This document shows, piece by piece, positions 1,967 to 19,731 of a stretch of DNA of 20,889 nt. Source of the DNA: an uncultured Clostridia bacterium (GTDB lineage: Bacteria > Bacillota > Clostridia > Christensenellales > Aristaeellaceae); the NCBI GenBank assembly GCA_937907055.1, contig CALCTW010000072.1:1-20889 (forward strand), written 5' to 3'. Within the stretch, counting starts at the first letter, position 1. Each line of letters begins with the position of its first letter. The notes beneath the pieces were generated by a model that saw only the letters and a program-made list of their open reading frames with translations, ran no database searches and was not told where the DNA came from. The position numbers and the translations under genes are program-made.

Positions 1967-2017
1967 TTGACAAAATAGTAGACATGTGTATACTAATTTA
2001 TGTAGACAGTTGTTTAC
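1967..2017 (+). promoter_or_regulatory. sigma-A type promoter with two BlaI/MecI/CopY-like inverted-repeat operators
   Basis: TTGACA (1967-1972), a 16-nt spacer, then TATACT (1989-1994) preceded by TG. There are two 16-bp inverted repeats of the form GTAnACA-N2-TGTnTAC: GTAGACAtgTGTATAC (1978-1993, overlapping the -10) and GTAGACAgtTGTTTAC (2002-2017). They resemble the TACA/TGTA operators of this repressor family. Confidence 0.6.
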
Positions 2018-2036
2018 CTTTTATGAAAGGAGAATC

Positions 2037-2408
2037 ATGATGCCGATTCAATGTACCGAAGCTGAATGGAAGATCCTTGAGGTCCTGTGGGACCGTGCTC
2101 CGCGCACCATTGCCGAGATCACCAAAGCATTGGAGGAAAAGACAGGCTGGTCCCGTCATGTGATCATCACACTGCTCAAGCGAATGGAAGAGAAGGGAAC
2201 TGTGGTTGTTGACGAAACCGGGCCTGCCAAACGTTATTCGCCCAAGGTCAGCCAGCAGGAGGCCAACACAGAGGAGACCGGAAAATTCCTTTCTCATGTG
2301 TTCAAGGGCGATGTTTCCCTGCTGATCAACCATCTTGTTGACACCGATCGTATCACGGCGAATGATCTGCAACAGATCGTCGATCTGATCCGTGAAAAAG
2401 GAAAGTGA
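2037..2408 (+). CDS. BlaI/MecI/CopY-family winged-helix transcriptional repressor
   Basis: An AAGGAG RBS lies 4 nt before ATG 2037. The translation MMPIQCTEAEWKILEVLWDRAPRTIAEITKALEEKTGWSRHVIITLLKRMEEKGTV...YSPKVSQ is typical of the family. The gene lies immediately upstream of an M56 peptidase gene. The stop is TGA. Confidence 0.88.
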   Translation: MMPIQCTEAEWKILEVLWDRAPRTIAEITKALEEKTGWSRHVIITLLKRMEEKGTVVVDETGPAKRYSPKVSQQEANTEETGKFLSHVFKGDVSLLINHLVDTDRITANDLQQIVDLIREKGK

Positions 2409-2424
2409 CATTACGGAGGTTTGT

Positions 2425-4026: not shown

Positions 4027-4057
4027 CCGGATATCAGAATGTTCATACAGGAGAAAA

Positions 4058-5527
4058 ATGATGAAGAAATTTATATTTTGCGTTCTTATCCTATTGGCGG
4101 TCTTTCTGCCGGTCTGCGCGGTCTACGCGGAGGGCGGCTATATCGAGTTTATGCCGCAGGTCGTTGCGGATCAATTGGAAAAACTCGGTGTCCGCAAGGA
4201 AAACTATGAGGACATCGTGATCTTGGATCAGGTAGAAACCTCCGATTGCCGGTCTCATCTTTTTGTGCTGGCCGGTAATGACGGCACACATCACACCGTC
4301 TATCATTTCACCAACATCGAGACCGATGAAAACGCCTATCTTCACTGGGTATATCAGGCGTGCTATGATCAGCTGGCACCGCAGGGAGAAGGAACGGTTT
4401 GTTTTTACAGGCATGAGCATTATGACCGCTATGGTGAAAACGGAAATGTGCAGCTTTATGATGACCCCAATGGGTTCATGATCTATCGGATCGATCCCGA
4501 GGATCCCGAGACATATATTCAGGGCGTCAATGTGCATGTGATCGATCGGCAATTTCAGATCATGGCATGGTTTGACAAGAGCGTTTCCCCGGTCTGCAGC
4601 GCTTATATTCAGAATGGAAAGCTGCATTATGGTGATAACGAAACCGGAAAAAGCTATGGAACGGTGAAATTGTATCGTGTTTTTGATCTGAATGTCGCCT
4701 TCAGCAGTCTGCCCAAGACCTATCGGAAGGCTTCGGAGAAGTATACCGATCCTGCCGCGATCCCACACGGTGAACTTAAGGCGGAGCTGGTCAAATTCGT
4801 ATCAAACAAAAAGTACGCGGTTTATTCCGCACCGGATCAGAACTCGCTTCGGGCGGCCAAGGGAAAGGCTGTGGTTTCGACCAATGACTGGATCCAGGTA
4901 TTCGGTCGGGAGAAGGATTGGATCCTGATCCAATATGCCATCGATAAGGATCATTACCGCTTCGGCTATATTTCCGCCGACGCGCTACCCAAGAAAACCA
5001 CTGTGAAGCAGTTGGATCTTCGATATACAAGCGCGTATACGAAAGGCCGCGTATCGGTGACGGATGATCCTTTGTATTCCGGTGCTGAACTGGTCAGCCT
5101 GCCGGAAGGCAGCCGCGTGACATGGCTCGCGACGATGGGCGAATGGGCTTATATCGAGAGCAGTAACGGCGATCGGCTGCGCGGTTTTGTTCCGCTGTCC
5201 GCGCTTCGGACAGAACAGGTGTTTGAATTGCGGAACTATCCGGGTGAAAACGGCCCTGTGTATGACGGTGATCTGATCATCCGCGCCGATCAAACCTTCA
5301 GCGCGTCCTTCACGGTCGTGCAGTCCGGGCCGCTCGGTAATGCCGCTGTGTCCGCTGTGTTTTTGGTCGATCCTGAAGGGAACGCACTGGGGACAGCCGC
5401 GTTCGATGCGCGTGAGAACGATTTCTTTTGTACCGGTGTGATCGATGATTCCGTTACTGTCATCCGCTTCGTTGCCGTCAATGCGGACGGTGATCCGCTG
5501 GATCATTCCGTTTCTGTACAATGGTAA
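4058..5527 (+). CDS. secreted protein with two C-terminal SH3b-like repeats; N-terminal domain unknown
   Basis: A GGAGA RBS precedes the start. The signal peptide is MMKKFIFCVLILLAVFLPVCAVYA. SH3b-like segments include YAVYSAPDQNSLRAAKGKAVVSTNDWIQVFGREKDWILIQY...GYISADAL and RVSVTDDPLYSGAELVSLPEGSRVTWLATMGEWAYIESSNGDRLRGFVPLSAL. The stop is TAA. Confidence 0.75.
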   Translation: MMKKFIFCVLILLAVFLPVCAVYAEGGYIEFMPQVVADQLEKLGVRKENYEDIVILDQVETSDCRSHLFVLAGNDGTHHTVYHFTNIETDENAYLHWVYQACYDQLAPQGEGTVCFYRHEHYDRYGENGNVQLYDDPNGFMIYRIDPEDPETYIQGVNVHVIDRQFQIMAWFDKSVSPVCSAYIQNGKLHYGDNETGKSYGTVKLYRVFDLNVAFSSLPKTYRKASEKYTDPAAIPHGELKAELVKFVSNKKYAVYSAPDQNSLRAAKGKAVVSTNDWIQVFGREKDWILIQYAIDKDHYRFGYISADALPKKTTVKQLDLRYTSAYTKGRVSVTDDPLYSGAELVSLPEGSRVTWLATMGEWAYIESSNGDRLRGFVPLSALRTEQVFELRNYPGENGPVYDGDLIIRADQTFSASFTVVQSGPLGNAAVSAVFLVDPEGNALGTAAFDARENDFFCTGVIDDSVTVIRFVAVNADGDPLDHSVSVQW

Positions 5528-5563
5528 CAGAAATATGGACTTTGTTGCGACAAGGAGGTATCT

Positions 5564-7285
5564 ATGAAACGGCTCGTGATGATCGTATTCGGTCTGATGA
5601 TGCTTTGCGTGGCAGCCAAGGCGGATGTTTTTGATCCGGAGGCCTATGCGCGGATCACATTGACGGAACGGTTCGGCTATACGGAGGAAGAGGCGTCACG
5701 ATTTGTTTTTGAAAATAAACAAGAGGGTCTGCTTCAGTATCATGATGCCGATCATGCCGATCGTGTCTATCAACTGACCTATACAGTCAACGGTCCGATC
5801 TGCGCTGTTTCTCCGTATGAAACGGATTTCAGCTCTTATCCCGGTGAATACGCGGTCCGGGACACCCTGCGGCAGGCCGAGAAGGAAAACTGGTTTTCGC
5901 AGTGGAACGCGGAGCATCGTGACGCTTTGCTGGCGTGGATGGATTCCGATCACCACAGCATGATGGTCAGAAGGGCGTTTGAAAACATTCTCTACAGCGA
6001 ATTGACCGATACAGCGCAGGTCATTCAAGGCTTTTTCCTGAATTGCTACGGGGACGAATCGGAATGGTCTCCTGCTTTATACGCGTGGCGGGATGAAGTG
6101 CTGGCGGCTTATGGTATATCACCGGACGCGCTGACTCGTTATCCCGAAGAGGGCATCACGCGCTACAGTATCGTAAAGGGCTTTTATATCGGAAAGACGG
6201 AAGTCTGTGAATTCAAAGGCGTGGTCCCGGATGAATTGACTCCTGTATTTTCACAGGAGTCGAGGCTTGAAGGATGGAACTGTCTTTGCGGTACCGTATT
6301 GCGATTGGATGCTCCGCTCGCGGGCAGGCCGGACGCGTACGGCATGGCGGCCTTTGAAAAAGACGGCGAAAGGATGCTTGTGATCATGGATCATGATCAC
6401 GATCGATGGTATCTCACGTTTCCCGGGAAAAGGTCACTGTATCAGGGCGATGAGCGGGAACTGTCGATCCGGGCGCATGAACTGAGCGGAACGTACTTCG
6501 TTTTGAGCTACAAGGGCACGGAAGGAACTGAATCGTTCTATCTGAGTGTCGTTGCGGAAACGGATGACCTGCTCGGCCATTACGCGCTGTGCCGCGTTGA
6601 ACGCTGTCGGTTGATCTCGGCAGAAGGAAAGGGTACAAGCTGGATCATTCCGGATGAGCCATACGGCAAGTGGACATATATCACACAGAAGGATGATCAT
6701 GTCTCAAAGGAAACGATCACCGTTGATCATCCGTGTTGGCTGGGGCTGCGTGACATGACGGACTTCCCGGTCACGCTCGAAAAAGGAAGGGCGCTTCCGT
6801 CTCCCTTGCCCGATGACTGCCGGATGACGACCGCCGTGCATCTGCGCAGAGATCACAACAGTCATTCTGAGGACATGGGAACGCTGCTTGATGGGACCGT
6901 CATTCGGGTCAAGTCCCGCGTGGCCGGAGATCCGTATGACTGGTTTCAAACGGATATCGGTCTGCTGAAGGGATATGTCAACACGCTGTATACCGATGTT
7001 TCCTTCGGGAATGCCAATCTATCCACGACACGCCCGCTCCCTGTGGCACAGTGCGAAAAAACAATACAATTGAGATCATCGGCCGGCTGGATCAGTACCG
7101 CGGTGGGCGATTTCCCGGCAGGTACAAGGATGCATGTCATCATGCGCCGTGGCGACTGGCTGTATGTCGTTGTTCCGCGCGGCGAGATCGATTGGCTCAT
7201 GGATGTAGACGGCACCTACGGCTGGATCCGCAGGGGAGATGTTCGTGTCGCCGCCATGCCGGTTTATTTGAATACGGAACCATGA
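5564..7285 (+). CDS. secreted protein with C-terminal SH3b-like repeats; N-terminal domains unknown
   Basis: An AAGGAGG RBS precedes the start. The signal peptide is MKRLVMIVFGLMMLCVAAKA. SH3b-like C-terminal segments include AVHLRRDHNSHSEDMGTLLDGTVIRVKSRVAGDPYDWFQTDIGLLKGYV and IQLRSSAGWISTAVGDFPAGTRMHVIMRRGDWLYVVV...GWIRRGDV. The stop is TGA. Confidence 0.75.
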   Translation: MKRLVMIVFGLMMLCVAAKADVFDPEAYARITLTERFGYTEEEASRFVFENKQEGLLQYHDADHADRVYQLTYTVNGPICAVSPYETDFSSYPGEYAVRDTLRQAEKENWFSQWNAEHRDALLAWMDSDHHSMMVRRAFENILYSELTDTAQVIQGFFLNCYGDESEWSPALYAWRDEVLAAYGISPDALTRYPEEGITRYSIVKGFYIGKTEVCEFKGVVPDELTPVFSQESRLEGWNCLCGTVLRLDAPLAGRPDAYGMAAFEKDGERMLVIMDHDHDRWYLTFPGKRSLYQGDERELSIRAHELSGTYFVLSYKGTEGTESFYLSVVAETDDLLGHYALCRVERCRLISAEGKGTSWIIPDEPYGKWTYITQKDDHVSKETITVDHPCWLGLRDMTDFPVTLEKGRALPSPLPDDCRMTTAVHLRRDHNSHSEDMGTLLDGTVIRVKSRVAGDPYDWFQTDIGLLKGYVNTLYTDVSFGNANLSTTRPLPVAQCEKTIQLRSSAGWISTAVGDFPAGTRMHVIMRRGDWLYVVVPRGEIDWLMDVDGTYGWIRRGDVRVAAMPVYLNTEP

Positions 7286-7324
7286 TCATAAACGCGCCGT
7301 GAGGCGTCAAAAAAGAGGAGAAAA

Positions 7325-7795
7325 ATGCAGAAAGACCAACGACAGCATTTCGCAAACTGGCAGCATCTTTATGATCAGTACGCGACCGATATCCTTCGGA
7401 CCTGTTATCTGCTTTTGAAGGATAAGGACGCGGCGGAGATCGCTGTACAGGAAACTTTCATTCAGATCGGATGCGGAAGCGGATATCTGGCACCGGGAAA
7501 CATGATCAGCGAAAAGGCCTGCCTTCTGCAGATCGCGATGGATCATTGCCGGGGATTATCGGGAAAATCAACGAGCGGATCCCCGGATCTGTATAAAACC
7601 GTCAGTCATGGCGGCGAAGAAGAGCGCCTGCTCAGAGGGATCGTCGGGCTGGATGATAAGCTTCGGCAGACCACTTTGCTTTTCTATTATCAGCAGCTGA
7701 CCATGCGTGAAGTCGCTTACGTGCAGCGCTCCTCGGTGTGGCTCGTAAAGCTTCGCCTCTTTCAGGCGGTCAGGCAATTGCGTATGCTTGCCTGA
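7325..7795 (+). CDS. small sigma-70 family (ECF-like) RNA polymerase sigma factor
   Basis: An AGAGGAG RBS precedes the start. A region-2-like segment is LYDQYATDILRTCYLLLKDKDAAEIAVQETFIQ. A region-4 helix-turn-helix-like segment is LRQTTLLFYYQQLTMREVAYVQRSSVWLVKLRLFQAVRQL. The stop is TGA. Confidence 0.7.
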   Translation: MQKDQRQHFANWQHLYDQYATDILRTCYLLLKDKDAAEIAVQETFIQIGCGSGYLAPGNMISEKACLLQIAMDHCRGLSGKSTSGSPDLYKTVSHGGEEERLLRGIVGLDDKLRQTTLLFYYQQLTMREVAYVQRSSVWLVKLRLFQAVRQLRMLA

Positions 7796-7893
7796 AGATT
7801 TCCTTTGTAACAATTGATAAGAGCACAGTCTGAGGTGTTAAAAAGCGCTCCGGAAAACAGAGTTTCATTCTTGGGGAAGGATCGAAAAAGGAA

Positions 7894-9558
7894 ATGAAAA
7901 AGTTGATAATGAAGAAACCGATGATAAAAGAAAAAATGATCTTGCTGCTTGGGCTTCTGCTCCTGTTATTGCCGTTCACAGCCGCAGCAGAATCGAAAAA
8001 GGAGTGGGAATTGACGTGTGATGCCAAACTGGCGGAAAACACGACGATCTATGCGATCGATATCGCGGCGGATGGCACAAAATCGGCGCGGGCGATCGGT
8101 TCTCTTCCGGCGGGTACCTATTTTCGGGTCAACAGCAAAGGGTTTGATGAAGAACTGCAGCTGAAGATGATCCGTTACTATCAGAATGGCGAGCAGAGCG
8201 CTTATATGGCGCGTTCCGCTCCGATCGCCAGTGCTTCCAAGATCATCTGGTTTACAGACGGCACGATGACACATCTTCCGGAAAATGTTGTGGCGGATCC
8301 GGCTGAGTTGCGTTCCTGGCTGAATACCACCTGCCCCGGGCATACGGTTTACGCCATTTCCAATGTCGGACAGGCCAGTCCACTTGAATTTCCTCAGACC
8401 TTTGACGGCACACAGACGACAATTCTCACCTCAGATCAGGCTGCCGCTGTGAATCCGGGCGGAACGCCGCGTCCGTACACCGGCGGCACCGCGAAGGATC
8501 CTTCTGTCAACACATCCGGCTATGTGGAAGGGGAGTGGAACATCAGCACAGAAATCTCTGCTGAAGAACAGGCCTTCAATGCGTCTTGTCCTCATCGCCT
8601 GAAGCGTACGGTCTGGGGCTATTCCGATGCGCATATGACGAGCAAATACGAGAAGATCAATATCGGCACCTATGTGAATATCATGACTGATTTCAACGAT
8701 GTCGTGAAGATCGCCTATTATAAAAACGGTGTGCGCCATACCGCATATGTTGAACGCGTGGATCTTCTGGGGGCTTATACGCAGTATGTTGATCGTCAGG
8801 GAAACGCGCAGACAGTCTATACCGGAGATCCCGATTATGAGGCCATTCTTTCCGGCTGTGAGGTGACCTTTCAGGCAGAGTCCATCACTCAGGGGTTGGA
8901 CACACTGGTGGCAGAAGAGCAGAACAGGAAAAACACGCCTGCCAAAGCTTCTGCTGAATCGAACGGAGCTGCCCATGCTTCGCAGGAGGCCGCAAGCACG
9001 GCATCCGGGAGCGAAGGTGAAAAAGTGGTCGTGAGCAGAGTCGGGGTCTCCACCACAATGATCGCGTATCAGGGTGAAACGATGGAAGTGCGCACCGCGC
9101 AACTTACCTTCAGCAAAAATGTGCCTTCATAGCATAAGGTGGCGGTCATCTACGCGCCTAAAACAGGAAAATGCACATTGCGAAAGAGCGCGTCCACCTC
9201 GTCCGCTGCATTGAAGAAGTGTAAGGCCGGTACGGTCGTCATCGTACTGGAACAGGGCGATAAAACCTGTAAGATCAATGTGAACGGCACCACTGGCTAT
9301 GTGCTGACCTCCTGTCTCAGATTTTATGACGCGAATACGCCCCTTTTGGGGGATGGCCAATTGTCCTATAATGGCAAAACAACGGGAAGAACTACCGTCA
9401 ATGTGCGCAATACACCGGAAAAGGGCAGTGCTGTCATCGGTGATTGGAAAACCGGCACGCAGGTGCAGGTCTTTTCACATGAAAATGGCTGGTATGAGAT
9501 CGAGTATCAGGGTATGCATGGCTATGTTCAGGAAAAATACCTGAATTTTGAGGAATAA
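7894..9558 (+). CDS. secreted multi-SH3b-repeat protein, one frame interrupted only by an in-frame TAG at 9130-9132
   Basis: The signal peptide region is MKKLIMKKPMIKEKMILLLGLLLLLLPFTAAA. Under the standard code the gene splits into 7894-9132 and 9139-9558, which share one frame. The downstream piece (HKVAVIYAPKTGKCTLRKSASTSSAALKKCKAGTVVIVLEQGD... and TVNVRNTPEKGSAVIGDWKTGTQVQVFSHENGWYEIEYQGMHGYVQEKYL) is two classic SH3b repeats. It has no ATG, no spaced RBS and no signal peptide. The final stop is TAA at 9556-9558. Confidence 0.78.
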
Positions 9559-9713: not shown

Positions 9714-10685
9714 ATGAAACGTTTCCTGTCTCTGCTGCTCATTTTGTTCCTTCTGCCGCTCAGCGCGTTTGCCGCGCCGGACCCGCAGGCATTGTATGTC
9801 TGCAAATCCGCGCGGGATTTTCATCTGCGCGATAAGCCGGACGGACGTTTTGTGGAATCGGTTCCCGATGCCAGCACCGTCTATATTCTGGAATGGCCCG
9901 CGGAGGAGGAATGGGTCTATGCCAGCTATAAAGGGCAGCGCGGTTATGCCAAGCTGGCCTGGCTGTATCAGATCCGCTCGCTGGATCCGGCCAACGCGCC
10001 GCTTCACAATGTGCCGAATGCCGTGGAAGGCATGCTAGTGCTGAAGGAGCAGGTGCTCATCAAGGCCGGTGATTATGAGGGCACGCTGCTGGAGGCTGGC
10101 GATACCGTGTGCGGCCGCCCGGACGGCGAGGGCAATTACATCGTTCCCGTATGGCGGAGCGAGCTGATCCTCACTTCCGAACAGGCAGATTTTGTGCCTT
10201 TTGCCGATCCTGCCGAGGCGGAGCCCGGCGATGTCATCGGTGCCTTCACCACCTTCTACGGCGATCAGCAGGGGAAGGGCAAGGCCAAGGAACGCGAGTT
10301 CAACATCATGGAAGGTTCTGTCCGCACTAATGGCGCCACCGTGCAGCCGGGGGAGTCATTCTCCTTCAACGCGCTGTGCTATCCCTATTCCAAAAAGAAC
10401 GGCTATCAGCTGGCCCCAAATATCAGCAAGAAGGGCACGGGCTACGGCGGCGGCATCTGCCAGTTTACCACCACGCTCTATAATGCCCTGCTGACCACCC
10501 CGCTGCTGATCACGGAATGGGCGGTGCATCGCTATAATGGTGTGGCTTACGTGCCGCAGCTCTTTGATGCCGCGGTCGGTGATTATTCCGATCTGGCCTT
10601 CACCAACACTCTCTCTTATCCTGTCAGGCTGGACTCCACAGTGGAGAACGGCGTGATCAACACCTTTATCGTTCGGGCGGATTGA
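9714..10685 (+). CDS. VanW-family protein with an N-terminal SH3b-like segment, secreted
   Basis: The signal peptide is MKRFLSLLLILFLLPLSAFA. The SH3b-like segment is FHLRDKPDGRFVESVPDASTVYILEWPAEEEWVYASYKGQRGYAKLAWL. The VanW signature is GTGYGGGICQFTTTLYNALL. The stop is TGA. Confidence 0.85.
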   Translation: MKRFLSLLLILFLLPLSAFAAPDPQALYVCKSARDFHLRDKPDGRFVESVPDASTVYILEWPAEEEWVYASYKGQRGYAKLAWLYQIRSLDPANAPLHNVPNAVEGMLVLKEQVLIKAGDYEGTLLEAGDTVCGRPDGEGNYIVPVWRSELILTSEQADFVPFADPAEAEPGDVIGAFTTFYGDQQGKGKAKEREFNIMEGSVRTNGATVQPGESFSFNALCYPYSKKNGYQLAPNISKKGTGYGGGICQFTTTLYNALLTTPLLITEWAVHRYNGVAYVPQLFDAAVGDYSDLAFTNTLSYPVRLDSTVENGVINTFIVRAD

Positions 10686-10819: not shown

Positions 10820-10985
10820 CTGTTTTAACAATTTTGTAACATATCAAGCTGAATTTGTCCCCTGTAAACCGGACACGGGAAAGCATCTAAATCGCAGATA
10901 CCGGATGTTATCTCCCGGTTCGTCAGCATGCGACCTGATCGGATCAGTACACTTTGGCATCTGTGTGCATAACGATCAGCTTACC

Positions 10986-11354
10986 CTATGAACCGTCCTC
11001 GTTCCTTATGCCTCCTTCGATCCGTAATCTGTATTCGCCGTTCACGATACCGCTTATCCCGCTTGCAGCCGCGTTTCCGACAAATTGAAGATCGTCCCAT
11101 GTGCAGACTGTGATCCATGATCCGTACACGCGCTTTTGCAGCATGATCCGAATAAAGCTGCCCGTCTGTTTCTGGTCATAGGGCACGATCAAACCGTAAA
11201 TGATAGCATTGAAGTCGCGCAGATCCATATATCCGATGCATTTGTACAGACTATCATAAACGGGATGCTTTTCTGACACTTCACAAAGAACGTTTACGTT
11301 GATCGAAGACATGAGCAGCAGGATCAATAAGAATATCGCAATGATCTTTTTCAT
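10986..11354 (-). CDS. small secreted protein of unknown function (ends at TAG; in-frame extension possible to 10944)
   Basis: An AAGGAG RBS lies 7 nt before ATG (11354-11352). The signal peptide is MKKIIAIFLLILLLMSSINVNVLC. The ORF stops at TAG (10988-10986). Reading through adds GKLIVMHTDAKVY and then TGA at 10946-10944. Confidence 0.6.
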   Translation of the reverse strand: MKKIIAIFLLILLLMSSINVNVLCEVSEKHPVYDSLYKCIGYMDLRDFNAIIYGLIVPYDQKQTGSFIRIMLQKRVYGSWITVCTWDDLQFVGNAAASGISGIVNGEYRLRIEGGIRNEDGS

Positions 11355-11365
11355 AACCAAGCTCC

Positions 11366-12130
11366 TTATTCTTCTGAAACGATGTGGTGAACACTCTGCG
11401 CGATCTGAATGGCGTTTTCAAGATCAATCGGGGATGATACGACAAACCATTTATCATCAACACTCCAGATGATCGTGAACATATTGAATGTGCCCTCTTT
11501 TATTTCGCATTCCTTCTCGATCACAAAAGCCGGATTGCCATTCAGGGTCATATTTGACAGTTGTGCTTCTTTTATGTCTATCAGAAGGTGCGTGTTATCG
11601 TCACATTCATCATAGGAAACGAAACCGGAATTGTCGTTGGAAAAGAGCATTACATTTTTCCCGGTTTCTGATACCCATATCCTATCATATTCCGCCGGTG
11701 TGAAGGCCGGATAGTATTCACCTTTGTAACCTGAGGGCACAGTGAAAACATCGGTAGGTTCAAGGTGAATATTGGCGTAGCCGGAATCAAGACTCATCAC
11801 CAGATTCATGATACTGCTGCGGATATAAGGGTTGCTTGCAACAGCCACAGGTACACCGATGAGGATCCCCATCAGCAGAACGATGATAACCGACATGGTT
11901 TTAACAAGGCGGCTCGTATGTGCGCTGTTTATTCTGTCTGTGTCCGGAGAACGTTTGTCCGAAGCCCGTTTCATCTTCAACCATTGTTGATGCGTGAACT
12001 GAATGGGGGTGATCTCTTCGGCTGTTTCTGTATCCTCGTCCGGGGGTTCGGCTTCATTGATCAGCGACAGACGGATCAATTCGTCCCAAAGCTGATCTTC
12101 TGAATAATCTATTGTTCTTCTTTTGATCAT
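11366..12130 (-). CDS. single-pass membrane protein, DUF4367-like putative anti-sigma factor
   Basis: The start ATG overlaps the stop of the upstream sigma gene (ATGA at 12130-12127). The layout is a cytoplasmic N-terminal region, one TM segment (MSVIIVLLMGILIGVPVAVA), then an extracytoplasmic domain. This is the usual arrangement of Clostridial sigma/anti-sigma pairs. The stop is TAA. Confidence 0.65.
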   Translation of the reverse strand: MIKRRTIDYSEDQLWDELIRLSLINEAEPPDEDTETAEEITPIQFTHQQWLKMKRASDKRSPDTDRINSAHTSRLVKTMSVIIVLLMGILIGVPVAVASNPYIRSSIMNLVMSLDSGYANIHLEPTDVFTVPSGYKGEYYPAFTPAEYDRIWVSETGKNVMLFSNDNSGFVSYDECDDNTHLLIDIKEAQLSNMTLNGNPAFVIEKECEIKEGTFNMFTIIWSVDDKWFVVSSPIDLENAIQIAQSVHHIVSEE

Positions 12131-12687
12131 TCCGCGTCAACCTCCTCCTGTATTTTGATTTGAATCAGCTTCCGTGCGCGTCTGATATATTGATTGATAC
12201 TGTTCGGTGAAAGGCCTGTTCGCTTTGCGATCTCTCGATTGCTCATTCCCAGGATCAGCTTCATACGAAATATCATTTTCATGCTGTCGGGCAAAGCCTG
12301 AACAGCATGCTGCACGTGATTTATCAGTTGCTTGTTTTCAAACACTTCCATCGTGCTGACAGAAGTTTCGTTTAACTGCAATTCTTCCACATTGATGACT
12401 GTCTTTAACTTTCCGCGCTGGGTATGCATGGCGATGGTATCAAGTGAAGTGTTTTTGACAGTTGTCAGTATGTATTGCTTCAAACTTTTTGCAGGCAGTT
12501 TCTTTAATTGATCAATGCGCCTGAATAACCGGACGCAGCTTTCTGAAACAGCATCCTATTCCAAACAATACGCACCGGCATATTTTCTTGCGATCTTCAG
12601 CATGTCGGATCCGTATGTTTCGTATAATTGTTCCATATACAGAATGCTTTCATCATCCTGTGCAGGATCTAAAAACAGCAGTATCAT
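12127..12687 (-). CDS. sigma-70 family (ECF-like) sigma factor, one frame interrupted only by an in-frame TAG at 12558-12556
   Basis: The standard-code ORF 12127-12483 encodes only regions 3/4 (LPDSMKMIFRMKLILGMSNREIAKRTGLSPNSINQYIRRARKLI) and begins at a TTG. The same frame continues upstream: MILLFLDPAQDDESILYMEQLYETYGSDMLKIARKYAGAYCLE[TAG]DAVSESCVRLFRRIDQLKKLPAKSLKQYILTTVKN. This supplies region 2. ATG is at 12687-12685, with AAGGAG 12 nt upstream. The stop is TGA. Confidence 0.72.
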
Positions 12688-12945
12688 TGCCGGGTGTTAC
12701 TCCTTTCGGTAACAAGGTTATCCCTATTCACTATTATATACGATTCTCGTATCAGATCTGTGACTTGTTGGATCGCATTATGTAAAATTTCAGGGAAACT
12801 GTCACATTTCCATGGCAGAATAAGTATAATAGATGAGAACAGCAGTAATTGCATCTTGAAAGGAGGGATTGTGAATCCGATCCTGCTGAAGTTCTCATAC
12901 GAAAACCGCTTGACTTGTAAAATAGCGGAGAGAAGAGGAGAATAC

Positions 12946-13512
12946 ATGAAAAAGGGTGTATTTGGAATTGTAGTTCTTTGTTTGTTGACAATATGTTCAT
13001 TTGCTTATGCGGATTGCAGTGTTTGTGGTGGTAACAACAAAACAACTGTTAATCGTCCGACAAAATGGATTGATGATATTGTTTTTGATACTCATACTCA
13101 ATATTATGTGGTTGACTCTTATTGCGCAGATTGCGGAAATTTTTTAGAAAGCACAACGAAAGAGTACAGAGATAGATCATATGCGCATATTTGGAGTATT
13201 GAATGTATTAACATTACATATCACAATGATACCAACTATCATTGGAAGGAGGGAAAACGGATTAAGCGATGTGAAGCATGCAATAAAATGATTACACTTG
13301 ACGAAAATGTGATCTATGATTCATAGTCTCACTATATGTCATCTTCTTATTTTGAAGATGCAGGGCATATTGGTGCACGACATTACTATGTAGTTATCTG
13401 TGGTAATGTGCATTGCAGTCGTTACTATACGATTTCTATTCCGTGTAAAGGCGGTTCTACACATGTCGCACCACTGTCTGTTGATCCAAATCCCAATACT
13501 GATATACAGTGA
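12946..13512 (+). CDS. small secreted Cys-rich (CxxC-repeat) protein, one frame interrupted only by an in-frame TAG at 13324-13326
   Basis: An AGAGGAG RBS lies 5 nt before ATG 12946. The signal peptide is MKKGVFGIVVLCLLTICSFAYA. Motifs are CSVC, CADC and CEAC before the TAG. After it, 61 more sense codons (62 codons counting the TGA stop) repeat the same theme (HYYVVICGNVHCSRYY versus the earlier QYYVVDSYCADCGN). The stop is TGA at 13510-13512. Confidence 0.68.
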
Positions 13513-13533
13513 TGTATGAAAGAGGTGTCGAAA

Positions 13534-14181
13534 GTGAAAAGGCATGTCGTTTTCTTACTGTGCTTGCTTTATCTTTTTTTGCTTGGCACAGCATTTGCGG
13601 ATCCTGTACCTGCCGATGATGCGCTTGAAAAATAGTTGCGTTATATTGCGGAGATATGGATGGGGGACATCATACCGGAGGAATAGTGCTTTACCGAGAC
13701 TACGGTAAAAGATGAACAGGGGAATACACTTGATGTCGAAGCATATTTATGTTAGGACAAAGACGAAACTACAGGTCAGGAGTATCTTCTGTTTGCGAAA
13801 ATATAGGAAAACAAGACCTCACTGCTCAGAATTTACTTGAACCATCAGAGAATCGAACCTGAGGTGGATGAGACTGCGGCAATTGATGCAGAAACCGCGG
13901 CGAGGCTTTTTTTGCGGATATGCGAACAGAATGAAGCCTTTGGTAACAGAGGTGATATGACACATGAACAATTCTTAAAAGAATGCGATTGCGAACTCTT
14001 TTCACCGGAACAAATGCGGTATACAGATCAGTCATTATGGACAAGCGTCCTGAAAGTTAACGGAACAGAAGGCAGCACGATTGTGGAACTTCTGTGGGAT
14101 GCATCAACGATGAGCATCGAACGTGTTATGTTGATGACAGAATCCCCGGATTCGTTTGCTTTCATACACTTAATGAGGTAA
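13534..14181 (+). CDS. small secreted protein of unknown function whose frame contains four in-frame TAG codons
   Basis: An AAGAGG RBS lies 8 nt before GTG 13534; an in-frame ATG at 13516 is an alternative start. The signal peptide is KRHVVFLLCLLYLFLLGTAFA. The frame is a 215-codon frame plus its TAA stop, with no internal TAA or TGA in AT-rich DNA. TAG codons are at 13633, 13684, 13753 and 13804. The standard-code ORF track shows only 13837-14181. The stop is TAA at 14179-14181. Confidence 0.65.
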
Positions 14182-14298
14182 ATGTGAAGGAACACGAAAT
14201 ATACGATCGACAGATATTGCGTTTGACAGCAATGAGGTTTGAAGTACACATATCTGAATCCGGATTCTCTTGCTTTGAGAGGAAGCCTGTATATTCGT

Positions 14299-14342
14299 AA
14301 AAAACCGAGCCCCCGATGCCGTCTGTTCGGCGTCGGGGGCTC
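14299..14342 (-). terminator. rho-independent terminator of the SulP gene
   Basis: On the minus strand, GAGCCCCCGACGCCG-aacaga-CGGCATCGGGGGCTC is followed by GGTTTTTT. Confidence 0.85.
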
Positions 14343-14363
14343 GTGCTGATCACATATGGATCT

Positions 14364-16067
14364 TCAGTTTTTATCATCCTGCGCGGCGAGGATCGCTTCG
14401 GCACGGGTGAAGGCGGCATCGATATTGGGGCAGAAGTTTTCCGCGCCCACTTCCTCACGGAAGCCGTACTTGACCATGGTCAGCATGGGCTGCTCGTTTA
14501 CGTGAGAGAGCACCAGCGTGATCCCGGCCTTCTTGCACTGCTCCTGCAGGTTCTGCAGCGCGATCATGGCGGTCACATCCAGCGAGGGCACGGCGCGCAT
14601 ACGCAGGATCAGCACCTTGGTCACATCACGGGTGGTGATCTGGTTCAGTCTGTCGGAAACGCCGAAGAACAGCGGGCCGCTGATCTCATACACGCGCACA
14701 GCCTGCGGCACGTCGCGCAGCTCCTTGCCGTTTTCATCGGTCTTTTCGTCATAGTGCCAGTTCTTTACGCTGAATTCGCTGGTCAGATGCTTCACCAGCA
14801 GCACCAGCGCGGCCACCAGGCCCACCTCGATGGCGACCACCAGGTCAAATACCACCGTCAGGATGAAGGTGATCACCAGCACCAGAATATCGGCCAGAGG
14901 AGCCTTCTTTACGATCCTGACCACGGTACGCCAGCCGCTCATGTTATAGGCCACCTGGAACAGGATGGCGGCAATGACCGGCATGGGGATCATGGCAGCA
15001 TAGGGGATGAGCAGCAGCAGCACCAGCACCAGCACCAGCGCGTGCACGATACCGGCAATGGGGGTGCGGCCGCCGTTCTTGATGTTGGCCGCGGTACGGG
15101 CGATGGCGCCGGTGGCGGGGATACCGCCGAACAGCGCGCTGCCCATGTTGCCGATACCCTGCGCGATCAGCTCCTGATTGGGGTTGTGCTTGGCGCCGAT
15201 CATGCCGTCAGCCACCACGCAGCTCAGCAGGCTCTCAATGGCCGCCAGCACCGCGATGGTCAGACCGTCGCTGAACTCGGCGCTGATCATATCAAAGGAC
15301 AGGGCAGGGAAGTGGAAGGCGGGCAGACCGGGCTCAATGGTGTACAGGTCGCCGATCGTCTTGACAGGCAGACCGGCCAGCTTGACCACCAGAATACCGG
15401 CCACGACCGCGATCAGGGAGCCCGGGATCGGGATCTTCTTGCAGATCTTCGGCCAGAAAATGAGGATCAGCAGCGCGAACACGCCCACCGCGACAGCCCA
15501 CAGATTGATGGAGCCGATGTTTTTAAAGAAGACCACCAGCTTTTCCACGGTCTCCACAGGCTTTTCGGCATAGGTGACACCGAAGAAATCCTTAAACTGA
15601 CCGATCAGGATGGTCACGGCGATACCGGCGGTGAAACCGGTGGTGATCGTGAACGGGATGAACTTGATCAGCGAACCCACGCGGCAGAGGCCCATAATGA
15701 TCAGCAGCACACCGGCGATGATGGTGGCAATGATCAGACCGTTCATGCCGTTCCGGGCGATGATCCCGGCTACGATGGTGGCAAACGCGGCGGTCGGACC
15801 GGCGATCTGCACCTTGCTGCCGCCGAAGAAGGCAATCAGGAAGCCCGCGACGATGGCAGTGTAGATACCCTCCTGCGGGCCCACACCGCTGGCCAGCGCC
15901 AGCGCGATGGAAAGCGGCAGCGCGATGATCGCGACGATGATGCCGCTGATGATGTCCCGGGAGAGCTGCTTGCCGTTATAGCCCTTCATGCTCAGGAACA
16001 GCTCCGGAATCAGGGGCTGCTTCTTCTCACCGGAAGTCTTGGTCTTTTTCTTGTTCAGGATGCTCAT
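14364..16067 (-). CDS. SulP-family inorganic anion (sulfate/bicarbonate-type) transporter with a C-terminal STAS domain
   Basis: The long ORF has many TM segments and SulP-like sequence (GIIVAIIALPLSIALALASG, GGSKVQIAGPTAAFA). The STAS-like C-terminus is VRVYEISGPLFFGVSDRL...VLILRMRAVPSLDVTAMIALQNL. I chose the start ATG at 16067-16065 (MSILNKKK...) because a GAGGGG RBS precedes it. The ORF track start at 16154 has none. The stop is TGA. Confidence 0.9.
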   Translation of the reverse strand: MSILNKKKTKTSGEKKQPLIPELFLSMKGYNGKQLSRDIISGIIVAIIALPLSIALALASGVGPQEGIYTAIVAGFLIAFFGGSKVQIAGPTAAFATIVAGIIARNGMNGLIIATIIAGVLLIIMGLCRVGSLIKFIPFTITTGFTAGIAVTILIGQFKDFFGVTYAEKPVETVEKLVVFFKNIGSINLWAVAVGVFALLILIFWPKICKKIPIPGSLIAVVAGILVVKLAGLPVKTIGDLYTIEPGLPAFHFPALSFDMISAEFSDGLTIAVLAAIESLLSCVVADGMIGAKHNPNQELIAQGIGNMGSALFGGIPATGAIARTAANIKNGGRTPIAGIVHALVLVLVLLLLIPYAAMIPMPVIAAILFQVAYNMSGWRTVVRIVKKAPLADILVLVITFILTVVFDLVVAIEVGLVAALVLLVKHLTSEFSVKNWHYDEKTDENGKELRDVPQAVRVYEISGPLFFGVSDRLNQITTRDVTKVLILRMRAVPSLDVTAMIALQNLQEQCKKAGITLVLSHVNEQPMLTMVKYGFREEVGAENFCPNIDAAFTRAEAILAAQDDKN

Positions 16068-16125
16068 GGTGTACCCCTCAGTGTATACACGATTCACGCG
16101 CGTACGCACGCGCGCGGCGTCCGTT

Positions 16126-16154
16126 ATTATAGCACCAAGCTTTCCCTCAAACAA
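16126..16154 (-). promoter_or_regulatory. candidate extended -10 promoter for the SulP gene
   Basis: The minus strand reads TTGTTT, a 17-nt spacer, then TGcTATAAT (TATAAT = 16131-16126). Confidence 0.45.
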
Positions 16155-16664
16155 TCACACAATTCTGGTCATTTTTTCGCCATATCCGTGGTTCTCCGGG
16201 CGCGTTTTCCTGCCGGGATCCTGATCCCTTTTCGTCGCGTCGGTTGCTTCAGCGTATCCCGGATCGCGCGTCATGCAGCGTTGCTCTGATCAGCGGCGGT
16301 TTGAGGATAGGAATGATCCTTTCAATCGATTCCGTGCCGCCGCAGACCTTGACCTTATTCTGATGATGATAAACGGAGTATCCCGGTACCGCGTGAGATC
16401 GCACATCGTCATCGGCACGTCCTTGCCCGCGCGTTGCTCCCGGTGAAGATCTTTTCATCCGGCCGCGGATCGCTTTACCCGGAAGCATCTGTTCTTCACG
16501 ATCATGGGGGAGGTCTCGTGCTCCCCATTCCGTTCACCTCCGTTTACCCACCTCCCAGATCCATGCTGTATACCGCGGCCGATTGATCCGGCTGTTTTCT
16601 GTGATCCTGTATGCGCTTTTTCCCGGATTTTCAGGGCTTTTGCGTGCTGATAAATGAACTCTTC

Positions 16665-16754: not shown

Positions 16755-16831
<77 letters not shown>

Positions 16832-16834
16832 TAT

Positions 16835-16911
16835 GGCTCCGTAGCTCAGCTGGCTAGAGCATTCGGTTCATACCCGGAGTGTCATCTGTTCGAATCAGAT
16901 CGGAGCCACCA
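16835..16911 (+). tRNA. elongator tRNA-Met (anticodon CAU), CCA encoded; lysidine-modified tRNA-Ile2 not formally excluded
   Basis: The cloverleaf has acceptor GGCTCCG/CGGAGCC, D-arm GCTC-AGCTGGCTA-GAGC, anticodon stem TTCGG/CCGGA with loop TTCATAC, and T-arm ATCTG-TTCGAAT-CAGAT. Confidence 0.85.
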
Positions 16912-16914
16912 TTT

Positions 16915-16987
16915 GGGGCATTAGCGCAGTTGGTAGCGCACAACACTGGCAGTGTTGGGGTCAGGAGTTCGAATCTCCTATGCTCCA
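16915..16987 (+). tRNA. tRNA-Ala (anticodon GGC), no encoded CCA
   Basis: The cloverleaf has acceptor GGGGCAT/ATGCTCC containing the G3:U70 alanine identity pair. The anticodon stem is CAACA/TGTTG with loop CTGGCAG, and the T-arm is AGGAG-TTCGAAT-CTCCT. The discriminator A is followed by TAA. Confidence 0.92.
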
Positions 16988-16992
16988 TAAGC

Positions 16993-17118: not shown

Positions 17119-17898
17119 GTGAGGACGAAATACCCTATCGTGCTTGTGCATGGACTTGGCATGAAAAGCCTGCCTTTTCTGCGCGCTTTCGGCCGTATTG
17201 ACCGCATACTGCGAATCCAAGGATATACGGTTTATGTGAGCCGCATTGACGCTATGGGCTCTGTCGAAACGAACGCACAGAAGTTAAAAGAAGAGATTGA
17301 TTCCATCCTTCTTGAAACCGGCTCCAAAAAAGTCAACATCATCGCTCATTCCAAGGGCGGACTTGACGCGAAGTATATGATGAGCGCGCTTGGAATGATG
17401 GAGCATGTCGCATCCTTTACCACGCTTTGTACGCCTCATGCCGGTTCTCCCATCGCTTCGTTCGTACTTCGCTTTCCAGACATACTGCTTCGTTACGCAG
17501 CTTTCTGGGTCAACTTCGCCTATCGTATTTTAGGCGACAAGCATCCCGACTGCTTGGCAGCGTGCCGTCAGCTTCGCCGGGTTTCGGGCAATGAAAAAAC
17601 GGAATTGCAGGGCGTGTTTTGCCAAAGCTTCTCTTCTGCCATTTCTGAGAAGGAGAAGCATTTTGACTTCGTGATGGGAATTCCCGCGTTTTTGTCACGC
17701 ATGATTGAGAAGAATTCTCTTACGGACGGACTCGTTCCGCGCGATTCCGCCGTCTTCGGGCAATACCGTGGCGATTGTATCGACGGTTCGGTCAGTCATA
17801 CGGAAATCATCGACTTCATGGTGCGCGACAAATACCGGGATCGCGTATTTACATTTTATTCCACTCTCTGCGAAGAACTGTCAAAGATGGGATATTAG
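17119..17898 (+). CDS. alpha/beta-hydrolase, lipase/esterase-like (GxSxG-type nucleophile elbow AHSKGG)
   Basis: An AAGGAG RBS precedes GTG 17119. The N-terminus YPIVLVHGLGMKS (oxyanion-hole type) and IIAHSKGGLDAKY are typical of small bacterial lipases. The ORF ends at TAG 17896-17898. Here TAG looks like a genuine stop (see findings). Confidence 0.75.
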   Translation: MRTKYPIVLVHGLGMKSLPFLRAFGRIDRILRIQGYTVYVSRIDAMGSVETNAQKLKEEIDSILLETGSKKVNIIAHSKGGLDAKYMMSALGMMEHVASFTTLCTPHAGSPIASFVLRFPDILLRYAAFWVNFAYRILGDKHPDCLAACRQLRRVSGNEKTELQGVFCQSFSSAISEKEKHFDFVMGIPAFLSRMIEKNSLTDGLVPRDSAVFGQYRGDCIDGSVSHTEIIDFMVRDKYRDRVFTFYSTLCEELSKMGY

Positions 17899-17975: not shown

Positions 17976-18689
17976 TTATTCCGTCTCCGCCATCCGGTAG
18001 CCCACGCCGACTTCCGTAAAAATATACATCGGTTCGTCCGAATTAGGCTCAATTTTCCGGCGGATATTCGCCATGTGTACGCGCAGTATTTTGTTGTCGC
18101 TGCTGGCATACGGACCCCAGAGCTCACGCATGATAAATTTATAGGTGAGAACTTTTCCAGCGTGCTCGCCGAGCAGCGCGACAATTTTGTATTCGTTCGG
18201 CGTCAGATTGACATCTTTGCCGCTGACGAACACACGGTGCTTCCGATAGTCAATTTCCATGTCGCCCACCTTGTACACACCCTGAAGCGCCACCGTGTCG
18301 TTTTCCATGGACGTGCGCGTATGGCGCAGTGCCGCGCGGATGCGCGCAAGCATTTCAATGGTACCGAAAGGCTTTGTAAGATAATCGTCCGCGCCCAAGT
18401 CCAGCGCTTTCGCTTTATCCTCCTCCATCGAACGCGCGGATATGACGATGATGGGCGTTTTCGTCCATTTCCGAACGCTTTGGATAATCTCGTTCCCATC
18501 CATGTCGGGCAAGCCAAGATCCAGAAGAATACAGTCCGGACAATGCGATGATATCATTTGAAGCGCCTTTTCGCCCGCGTCGGTAACGACCACGTCAAAA
18601 CGATTGGCGACAAGCATCGCTTTCAGGAATTTTGCAATTCCAGCGTCATCCTCCACAATCAATACCTTCAAAGGACATTCAGCCATCAT
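17976..18689 (-). CDS. OmpR/PhoB-family response regulator, KdpE-like
   Basis: The receiver domain is KVLIVEDDAGIAKFL...ILLDLGLPDMDG...PIIVISARSMEEDKAKALDLGADDYLTKPF. The winged-helix output is LTPNEYKIVALLGEHAGKVLTYKFIMRELWGP...LRVHMANIRRKIE. The start ATG(ATG) at 18689/18686 overlaps the kinase stop. The ORF-track N-terminal extension to 18779 was rejected. The stop is TAA. Confidence 0.88.
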   Translation of the reverse strand: MMAECPLKVLIVEDDAGIAKFLKAMLVANRFDVVVTDAGEKALQMISSHCPDCILLDLGLPDMDGNEIIQSVRKWTKTPIIVISARSMEEDKAKALDLGADDYLTKPFGTIEMLARIRAALRHTRTSMENDTVALQGVYKVGDMEIDYRKHRVFVSGKDVNLTPNEYKIVALLGEHAGKVLTYKFIMRELWGPYASSDNKILRVHMANIRRKIEPNSDEPMYIFTEVGVGYRMAETE

Positions 18690-19731
18690 ATTCCTCCTCG
18701 TGCGGCAGCCAGAAACGGATGATTCCCCCGCCCCGCTCGCGGTTGCCGGCGGTAATCTCTCCACCATGCGCGCGGACAATCGACCGGCATACGCTTAAGC
18801 CTATTCCCATATTGCGTTTTCCGTCCGCGGTAACGGGCGATCTCGCTGCGTTCATTTCAAAGATATGCGATAGCCGCGCTTCGTCAAATCCCGCGCCGTT
18901 GTCCTCGATGGAAACGCACACCCGCCCCGTCTCCACGGAAACATACACGTCGATATCCGTGGCGCTTTTTCCGTGATCCGCTACATTCTCAAACAGATTT
19001 ACAAGTAACTGCTCGATCAGCACGCCGTCCATTTCGACCAGTAAAATCCGTTCGGGGCGGTGTACGTTCACCCGGATATCCGCGCAATTTTTCTTGAATT
19101 TCAATATCGCGCTGCCGATGATTTCCTCCAACACCTCGGCTTCCTTCTTGATATGCACTTCACCGCCGGAAAATTTGGTAATGGAGAGCAGGTTTTCCAT
19201 AACCCGGATCAGCCATTTCGCATCCTTTTGGATTTCGCGTATCAGATCGTCCCGGTTTTCCTTTTCCATGTCCTGATTCTCAATCAGAGCGGAGCTTGCG
19301 CCAAGAATGGACGAAAGGGGCGTTCTTAAATCATGCGAAATAGATCGAAGCAGATTTCCGCGCATTTTCTCCGCGTCAATTTCGTATTTTAGCTGCTCCT
19401 GCCGCTTGATCTGCGAAGTAAGCGCGCTGATGATGAAGGAAACCAGCAGCATGGATACAAAGCTCAGCGGATATCCGCTGATGGAAAAATCGAACTCCAG
19501 AAACGGATAGGTAAATAAGAAATTTACGCAGAATACCGATATCAACGAAGCGACAATTCCATAAACAAAACCATTCGTGAAACGGGCGATCAACGCGACC
19601 GCCAGAATAAAAACAGGCGTGGCAAACGGGTTGTTGTCGTTATTTACTTTAGCCAATAATACGCAAAGAAGGACTGCGCACAACAGAATGAAAAAAGAAA
19701 CAAGAACGCTTTTCAATTTCTGATTCTTCAT
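18679..19731 (-). CDS. sensor histidine kinase resembling the C-terminal half of KdpD (membrane DUF4118-like domain + HisKA + HATPase_c)
   Basis: There are four hydrophobic segments at the N-terminus, the H-box LLRSISHDLRTPLSSILG, the N-box LLVNLFENVADHG and the G-boxes IEDNGAGF / GIGLSVCRSIVRAHGG. The KdpD N-terminal sensor (Usp/KdpD-N) domains are absent, and no kdpABC genes are in the window. The stop is TGA. Confidence 0.85.
   Translation of the reverse strand: MKNQKLKSVLVSFFILLCAVLLCVLLAKVNNDNNPFATPVFILAVALIARFTNGFVYGIVASLISVFCVNFLFTYPFLEFDFSISGYPLSFVSMLLVSFIISALTSQIKRQEQLKYEIDAEKMRGNLLRSISHDLRTPLSSILGASSALIENQDMEKENRDDLIREIQKDAKWLIRVMENLLSITKFSGGEVHIKKEAEVLEEIIGSAILKFKKNCADIRVNVHRPERILLVEMDGVLIEQLLVNLFENVADHGKSATDIDVYVSVETGRVCVSIEDNGAGFDEARLSHIFEMNAARSPVTADGKRNMGIGLSVCRSIVRAHGGEITAGNRERGGGIIRFWLPHEEEYDG

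Follow-up and report, generated by a model that had tools for sequence, protein, structure and literature searches.

In-frame TAG codons in a secreted-protein gene suggest sense decoding of UAG in an uncultured Clostridia lineage

The frame at positions 13534-14181 of contig CALCTW010000072.1, from an uncultured Clostridia bacterium, appears to be a single functional gene for a secreted protein, although four TAG codons interrupt it. The contig, which we call the window, is a complete public contig of a metagenome-assembled genome (MAG), 20,889 bp in length. Its bearing is wider than one gene, because TAGs, and no other type of stop, also interrupt the frames of further genes in this lineage. 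We consider it probable that UAG is decoded as an amino acid throughout the lineage, probably glutamate or glutamine, by a tRNA with a CUA anticodon, and that termination by release factor 1 (RF1) at this codon has been lost or out-competed; within this proposal, we infer the suppressor tRNA, the status of RF1, the residue inserted and the efficiency of read-through.

The frame at 13534-14181 and its relatives

Homology to uninterrupted proteins supports a reading of the frame as one whole gene. An exhaustive HMMER search recovered two full-length, stop-free homologues that align across all four TAG sites, P0003 (197 aa, 35% identity, E=7e-25) and P0004 (202 aa, E=1.5e-12), with alignments running from the signal peptide to the C-terminal domain; this family is without annotation. 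The same search returned orthologues in the pieces that the standard code would make of them, namely P0005, a 33-aa database 'gene' ending exactly at the first TAG, and P0001 and P0002, which are C-terminal fragments. Relatives emerged only from this exhaustive search: a word-indexed search with the protein gave no matches, and none were found in GTDB genomes scanned with its C-terminal half, in JGI metagenomes scanned with the protein and with the family alignment, or among the viruses of IMG/VR scanned with the family alignment.

Orthologous DNA is present in three other samples, at 97% identity to the window in locus L079 and at 86-89% in loci L001 and L003, and all three keep the 648-nt frame without an indel, a TAA or a TGA. 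The first, second and fourth TAGs are common to lineages that differ by about 12% in DNA, and the same TAGs recur in independent assemblies (NCBI/ENA, Logan SRR14246005, Logan SRR21150886 and ENA ERZ27247133). The initial annotation had held that relatives in which this region is non-coding, with stops of all three types, would count against a gene; the orthologues keep the frame and contain TAG only. Ratios of non-synonymous to synonymous substitution (dN/dS, Nei-Gojobori) are 0.22-0.34 over the TAG-bearing codons 1-101 in the proposed frame, compared with 0.6-1.35 in the other two frames, and 0.33-0.44 compared with 0.8-1.5 over the C-terminal part (Fisher's test on synonymous and non-synonymous changes in the gene, P=1e-4). 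The TAG-bearing half is thus under purifying selection, and in the proposed frame only. The earlier claim of one 215-codon gene translated through four TAGs therefore finds support in stop-free homologues, conserved TAGs and purifying selection, and further in the AlphaFold model and in other genes of the lineage whose in-frame TAGs stand where relatives or family profiles have Glu (both described below). As a separate observation, L003 has a fifth in-frame TAG (L003:934-936) at the conserved Leu of an ELLWD motif, where the other orthologues have CTG; this may represent a deleterious change, a fault of assembly or one more TAG that is tolerated.

The frame itself is as the initial annotation described it. 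The GTG start at 13534, the AAGAGG ribosome-binding site, the four in-frame TAGs and the TAA at 14179 all match the sequence, there is no in-frame TAA or TGA before the terminal codon, and the sole open reading frame (ORF) listed under the standard code is a 114-aa frame with a TTG start at 13837-14181. The clean signal peptide described for the frame also stands, by inspection: a positive n-region (KRH), a hydrophobic core and an A-x-A cleavage site (AFA|D) are present, and the homologues P0003 and P0004 have equivalent N-termini with the same signal-peptide architecture. On read-through, TAG-spanning peptides of the frame and its lineage would be expected to include ALEK-X-LR and YIAEIWMGDIIPEE-X-CFTETTVK, where X is the residue at TAG.

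An AlphaFold model, built with only three sequences, has a predicted TM-score (pTM) of 0.70, and its best region is the TAG-bearing one, residues 31-100, with a predicted local distance difference test score (pLDDT) of 82-87. The signal-peptide region forms a helix at residues 2-18. The TAG-bearing half models as a folded domain, and the model places the four TAG sites in loops, at the beginning of a helix or in a hairpin turn. The product is predicted to be a Sec-exported protein of approximately 190 residues when mature, with two alpha/beta lobes. It had no match in Pfam, and its model had no significant fold match in the PDB (Foldseek). The best of the non-significant matches (E=0.01-0.1) were DcrB/PsbP/Mog1-like periplasmic alpha/beta proteins, among them DcrB (6e8a, E=0.01) and PsbP; the likeness lies in both being small secreted or periplasmic alpha/beta proteins, but TM-scores are low (0.28-0.37) and the lack of a Pfam match sets the present protein apart.

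Composition contributes less than had been supposed. The initial annotation called the DNA AT-rich, but it is not strongly so, with a GC-content of approximately 40% around the gene and 51% over the window. TAA and TGA together account for 3.0% of all trinucleotides over the window and 4.2% around the gene, and a 223-codon frame free of both has a probability per frame between 7.5e-5 (local composition) and 1.2e-3 (window composition). The earlier wording, 'very unlikely', was an overstatement, as chance alone would give the window 0.13-1.5 frames of that length. For the 108 codons that precede the standard-code ORF, the probability of staying free of TAA and TGA is 0.01-0.04, and four TAGs among them exceed the local TAG frequency (P = 0.005). 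Taken alone, without homology or conservation, the frame is suggestive; its statistics go no further, and so it is homology and conservation that settle the case.

TAG in other genes of the lineage

Five further genes of the window contain an in-frame TAG, encoding an L,D-transpeptidase (YkuD), a secreted SH3-domain protein, a sigma factor, a Cys-rich secreted protein and a small secreted protein (Table 1). The YkuD TAG is kept in two loci, L076 and L077, while the orthologues P0130 and P0135, which belong to the 90%-identity cluster of the window protein, and P0007, at 80%, have Glu in its place. The SH3 TAG is likewise kept in L076 and L077, and in these two loci and L079 the gene appears as the same pair of ORFs. 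In the sigma factor, whose TAG is kept in L079, the Sigma70_r2 domain gives a match (residues 4-69) only on read-through of that codon; local phmmer and jackhmmer searches with this protein against the fetched loci gave no matches. The Cys-rich gene has an orthologue in L001 with CAA (Gln) at its TAG, and the TAG of the small secreted protein is ambiguous between stop and sense.

A seventh case is a Xaa-Pro aminopeptidase gene (L080) that sits ten kilobases upstream on a sister contig. After its TAG come 32 codons, DNLLVTEDGCENLSAAIPRTMEEIERVMAGE, that match the C-terminus of the family, and the read-through junction would be GFRL-X-DNLLVTEDGCENLSAAIPR. In alignments with 3ig4 and E. coli PepP, the TAG stands at the E of their GIRIED (GIGIRIEDD) motif, a residue which we take to be the metal ligand Glu406. 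The seven members of this protein that databases contain are all truncated at this codon, to 390 aa.

In total, 11 in-frame stops lie inside these seven homology-supported genes and all are TAG, with no TAA or TGA, an outcome with P ~6e-6 if the stop types were equally likely. They are concentrated in accessory and secreted genes, and there are none in GroEL, GroES, PpdK or the other housekeeping genes sampled. A symmetric scan for ORF pairs divided by each of the stop types carried too much noise to be used. As a terminator, TAG is scarce: it clearly ends one of the 33 distinct lineage genes and possibly a second, compared with 132 of 698 long ORFs (18.9%) in 72 other Clostridia loci, a depletion with P = 0.009-0.037. 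In a sister lineage with a 93% identical PpdK, TAG ends 0 of 15 genes, a small sample, and no in-frame TAG was seen; this lineage, known from a 214-kb contig (L081, ERZ27247122 k141_61407), could be at a stage where TAG is unassigned.

With regard to the amino acid inserted, each one-step neighbour of TAG was substituted at a site and scored against the family profile. Glutamate was highest at the aminopeptidase site (Peptidase_M24: E 140.1, Q 137.1, K 137.0, S 137.0, Y 135.7, L 134.7 and W 134.7, with 136.4 when TAG was left undefined as X) and at the sigma-factor site (Sigma70_r2: E 37.0, Q 35.0, S 33.9, K 33.7, L 33.4, Y 31.6 and W 30.9, with X at 33.5). An alignment to PDB structures, in which the sigma-factor TAG falls opposite a Pro of E. 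coli sigma-E, was uninformative and is superseded by this scoring. At the YkuD site the family column contains H 26, E 6, P 1 and D 1, and Glu is the best one-step neighbour. From these conserved-domain sites Glu is our best guess, with Gln second.

Several observations weigh against a complete change of meaning, or against glutamate as the residue. The clearest is the lipase-like gene downstream of the tRNA cluster, which ends at a TAG at what looks like its natural C-terminus: the encoded esterase has Ser, Asp and His motifs and approximately 32 residues after the His, as in family-I lipases, and 10 of the 10 relatives in its cluster are 259 aa long. Read-through would run for a further 129 codons before a TAA or TGA, and this extension, to 18285, is not protein-like and overlaps a convergent response-regulator gene. 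Either UAG still terminates in part, then, or a junk C-terminal extension is tolerated; UAG may terminate at least part of the time, in which case decoding would be ambiguous rather than fully reassigned. Nothing consistent in nucleotide context separates the read-through TAGs from this terminator. Secondly, ARAGORN found only Met, Met and Ala tRNAs, and none with a CUA anticodon, in the approximately 60 kb of lineage sequence available, and Rfam with ARAGORN showed no suppressor tRNA or other RNA near the four-TAG gene; nor is there a pyl gene or a tRNA-Pyl in those 60 kb. Thirdly, TAGs of the accessory island that contains the gene (described below) correspond to CAA (Gln), TGG (Trp) and CTG (Leu) in close orthologues, and the distant homologues show Q/T, C/I, S/E and L/R at its four sites, which is why the assignment of Glu is confined to three sites. 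Finally, the aminopeptidase may be an atypical enzyme, as its other metal-binding Glu (VEPG motif) is replaced by Asp.

Genomic setting and the accessory island

The window is bacterial chromosome and not phage. No viral context of structural, replication or lysis genes was found, and the neighbours are instead genes for PpdK, BlaI/BlaR1, VanW, SulP, tRNAs, two-component systems, LexA and GroEL/ES. The best named relatives are uncultured Clostridia MAGs, in which PpdK reaches 88-94% identity, and SulP is only 47-72% identical to proteins of Clostridia/Lachnospiraceae in GTDB representative genomes, without synteny. A 657-aa plus-strand ORF at 14316-16289 was rejected as a gene, being an antisense frame of the SulP permease. 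Table 1 gives the features of the window, along with the aminopeptidase gene.

Table 1. Features of the 20,889-bp window and the aminopeptidase gene of a sister contig
Feature	Position	Strand	Remarks
PpdK C-terminus	150-797	+	
L,D-transpeptidase YkuD	1090-1788	+	Pfam; TAG at 1579-1581, catalytic H...C motif 3' of TAG
BlaI and BlaR1	1986-4026	+	
Secreted and SH3 proteins	4058-9558	+	
Secreted SH3-domain protein	7894-9558	+	TAG 9130-9132; both SH3 domains 3' of TAG
VanW	9714-10685	+	
Small secreted protein	10944-11354	-	TAG at 10986-10988, then 14 codons to TGA
Accessory island, 2.9 kb, GC 40-45%	11315-14254		DUF4367, sigma, Cys-rich and four-TAG genes; from blastn, junction alignment and composition
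DUF4367 protein, putative anti-sigma partner	11366-12130	-	Pfam; overlaps end of sigma gene
ECF-type (extracytoplasmic function) sigma factor, regions 2 and 4	12127-12636	-	TAG 12556-12558 inside region 2
Cys-rich secreted protein, 188 codons	12946-13512	+	TAG at 13324-13326; ends 21 nt before four-TAG gene
Ribosome-binding site AAGAGG	13520-13525	+	8-nt spacer to GTG 13534; direct sequence reading
Four-TAG gene, putative secreted protein	13534-14181	+	215 codons including four TAG; GTG start, TAA stop at 14179-14181; from translation
Predicted Sec signal peptide	13534-13599	+	Residues 1-22, VKRHVVFLLCLLYLFLLGTAFA, D next; by inspection
TAG 1, codon 34	13633-13635	+	Kept in L001, L003, L079; P0003 Q, P0004 T
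TAG 2, codon 51	13684-13686	+	Kept in window, L001, L003, L079; P0003 C, P0004 I
TAG 3, codon 74	13753-13755	+	TAG in window and L079; TGG (Trp) in L001 and L003; P0003 S, P0004 E
TAG 4, codon 91	13804-13806	+	Kept in window, L001, L003, L079; predicted beta-hairpin turn; homologues L/R
SulP/STAS sulfate permease	14364-16154	-	
tRNA-Met, tRNA-Met, tRNA-Ala	16755-16988	+	
Family-I lipase-like esterase	17119-17898	+	Ends at TAG 17896-17898
Two-component system	17976-19731	-	
LexA	20305 to window end	+	
Xaa-Pro aminopeptidase	L080:4330-5598		TAG 5500-5502; sister contig, same 65.6-kb contig as L076

The four-TAG gene belongs to an accessory island that is missing from L076 and L077, contigs with 97% identity elsewhere, where approximately 107 unrelated nucleotides stand instead. 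Alignment of the junctions revealed no direct (flanking) repeats, mobile-element signature or mobility genes, and a phage origin for the island was dropped after the IMG/VR scan gave no relatives. Within it, the four-TAG gene and the Cys-rich gene are probably co-transcribed, and the position of the former, divergent to the sigma/anti-sigma pair, hints at a possible role in an envelope-related accessory module.

The Cys-rich gene is absent from L003 and L079. There, the four-TAG gene is fused to the ribosome-binding site and start of the Cys-rich gene (L003:355-380 and reverse-complement 7340-7372 of L079, compared with window 12940-13536), which gives it an ATG start and an N-terminal extension, MKKSMH; this looks like a deletion between two similar signal-peptide starts. 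Other differences between contigs lie outside the island. A second insertion absent from L076 and L077 (window 4042-5534) carries the gene for a 489-aa secreted protein (4058-5527), and the tRNA cluster marks a break in synteny, beyond which the window continues with the esterase, a two-component system and LexA, and L076 with an FtsX/ABC transporter and a different two-component system. On a 62.8-kb ENA contig, PpdK occurs as a 985-aa variant (P0172), 107 residues above the usual 878, which might be an N-terminal extension or a fusion.

Competing explanations and known systems

In proposing a mechanism, we suppose that the lineage decodes UAG as an amino acid, so that the four TAGs of the gene would not end translation. 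A tRNA with a CUA anticodon would insert glutamate (with glutamine as second choice), and RF1-dependent termination at UAG would have been lost or strongly out-competed. New TAGs would then arise by single-base changes from GAG, CAG, TGG or TTG, and would accumulate earliest in rapidly evolving genes, secreted or accessory, of which this is one. In its strictest form, the proposal would make UAG a standard sense codon for glutamate, read by a tRNA-CUA charged with Glu, with RF1 lost or disabled and UAA and UGA the only stops, a code undescribed before; we advance this version tentatively and regard it as possible rather than likely.

Part of what the proposal must accommodate would also follow if decoding were ambiguous or conditional, that is, if RF1 still stopped at UAG and a suppressor tRNA, which could be chromosomal or come from a TAG-recoded phage or other mobile element, were partly efficient. 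TAGs would then be attenuators or switches for accessory secreted proteins and the sigma factor, and four in one gene would make its dependence on the suppressor very steep. The lipase-like gene that stops at TAG at its natural C-terminus fits such a scheme, as do the small secreted protein with a TAG just 14 codons before its TGA and the concentration of TAGs in accessory and secreted genes, with none in sampled housekeeping genes; there are precedents in archaea that encode pyrrolysine (PMC12626013) and in the suppressor-tRNA phages of gut Firmicutes (10.1101/2021.08.26.457843). However, four serial TAGs would cut the yield to the fourth power of the read-through efficiency, yet purifying selection over the whole gene is as strong as on an ordinary gene. 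In a housekeeping-type aminopeptidase, a catalytic residue is encoded by a conserved TAG, few genes use TAG as their terminator, and the IMG/VR scan found no viral relatives of the family; on balance we think ambiguous decoding rather unlikely, but a serious rival. Pyrrolysine decoding, with pylTSBCD present as in pyrrolysine-using Firmicutes and the archaeal 'Pyl code', is far less probable still. UAG is the pyrrolysine codon, its users seldom terminate genes with TAG and decode amber ambiguously (PMC12626013; 10.1101/2024.09.30.615893), and the available sequence leaves room for pyl genes elsewhere in the genome; but none of the seven TAG-bearing genes is a methylamine methyltransferase, the roughly 60 kb examined contain neither a pyl gene nor tRNA-Pyl, and the three conserved-domain sites call for Glu, including the metal-binding carboxylate of M24, with Lys-like residues scoring 3 bits lower.

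The remaining explanations deny that the frame is a working gene. Were it a decaying pseudogene, its four TAGs would be nonsense mutations and only the 114-aa C-terminal ORF, or nothing, would be expressed. The standard code does break the frame four times, the island is dispensable, being absent in close relatives, L003 has its fifth TAG at a conserved Leu, and relatives show Q, W, L and E at the TAGs, as random nonsense mutations might. Against this, three TAGs are common to lineages about 12% diverged, no indel, TAA or TGA has appeared since the split, and dN/dS upstream of the last TAG is 0.22-0.34. Random decay would also have to yield TAG at 11 of 11 interrupting stops in seven genes (P ~6e-6), while the YkuD catalytic motif lies after its TAG and the peptidase TAG falls at the catalytic Glu, both TAGs being conserved across samples. 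We therefore regard decay as very improbable. That the frame opened by chance, or is an artefact of assembly or sequencing, would have some appeal on statistics alone, given that approximately 1.5 such TAA- and TGA-free frames are expected at window composition, but homologues span the whole frame and independent assemblies have the same TAGs, which leaves it with a negligible probability. Homology, conservation in orthologues, dN/dS and the AlphaFold model together disfavour both the pseudogene and the chance frame.

Lineage-wide sense decoding of UAG, as we propose it, has partial analogues in several known systems. In crAss-like, Lak and other gut phages with code 15-type amber recoding, TAG encodes Gln (10.1101/2021.08.26.457843, PMC9523058). 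These phages likewise have in-frame TAGs in intact genes, keep TAA and TGA as stops, depend on a CUA suppressor tRNA, here only presumed, and belong to a gut-type Firmicutes setting. With regard to Gln the picture is mixed: one TAG is CAA in an orthologue and P0003 has Q at the first TAG, but in our profiles Gln comes second to Glu. The phages differ in that the genes described here are chromosomal, lying beside PpdK, GroEL/ES, tRNAs, LexA and two-component systems, without viral relatives; moreover, the conserved sites favour Glu over Gln and the lineage sequence examined lacks a suppressor tRNA. Bacterial reassignments of UGA, to Trp in code 4 and Gly in code 25 (PMC8629427, PMC13462651), are closer in being organism-wide, with the codon found at conserved sense positions and depleted as a terminator, and by analogy the cognate release factor would have been lost and a tRNA anticodon changed. 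As the codon here is UAG, it is RF1 rather than RF2 whose loss would be expected; and, unlike the genomes with UGA codes, the present one is not small or AT-rich (GC approximately 51-54%), and one gene still seems to stop at TAG. In the literature to August 2026, we found bacterial stop-codon reassignments described for UGA only; a sense meaning of UAG is known just from certain phages, pyrrolysine users and a single archaeal code.

Organisms that use pyrrolysine and decode amber ambiguously (PMC12626013), like those with the archaeal 'Pyl code' (10.1101/2024.09.30.615893), are similar in that UAG is read as an amino acid, and maybe also as a stop, and is little used as a terminator. Here, in contrast, TAGs lie outside methyltransferases and align with Glu, including a metal ligand, and pyl genes are absent from the sequence sampled. 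Finally, sporadic conserved in-frame stops with read-through have been reported from ordinary bacterial genes (Belinky et al. 2021, PMC7918605), and our observations resemble these in the conservation of orthologous TAGs across strains, in dN/dS <1 downstream and in the alternation of TAG with CAG-type sense codons. However, that survey concerned isolated single stops of all three types, while here only TAG is involved, in about a third of the genes of the window and up to four times per gene, which points to efficient, codon-specific decoding and not to occasional leakiness. In the literature to August 2026 we found no description of a Clostridia lineage with TAG-specific read-through in many genes.

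Standard-code gene calling splits or truncates these genes, so that the four-TAG gene appears as fragments of 33 aa and 89-114 aa and the aminopeptidase loses its last metal ligand; proteins of the lineage are systematically mis-annotated in public databases. If the proposal is true, it would represent a new natural code, with UAG as Glu or Gln in chromosomal genes of medium-GC Clostridia of apparently normal genome size, and a natural counterpart of engineered RF1-deficient E. coli. In its strictest form, with glutamate, it would be the first amber reassignment in the chromosome of a free-living bacterium, and the sister lineage could then be the 'unassigned codon' intermediate of the codon-capture model. 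The combination of rare TAGs in fast-evolving genes with one gene that ends at TAG would make the 'codon capture' and 'ambiguous intermediate' routes testable.

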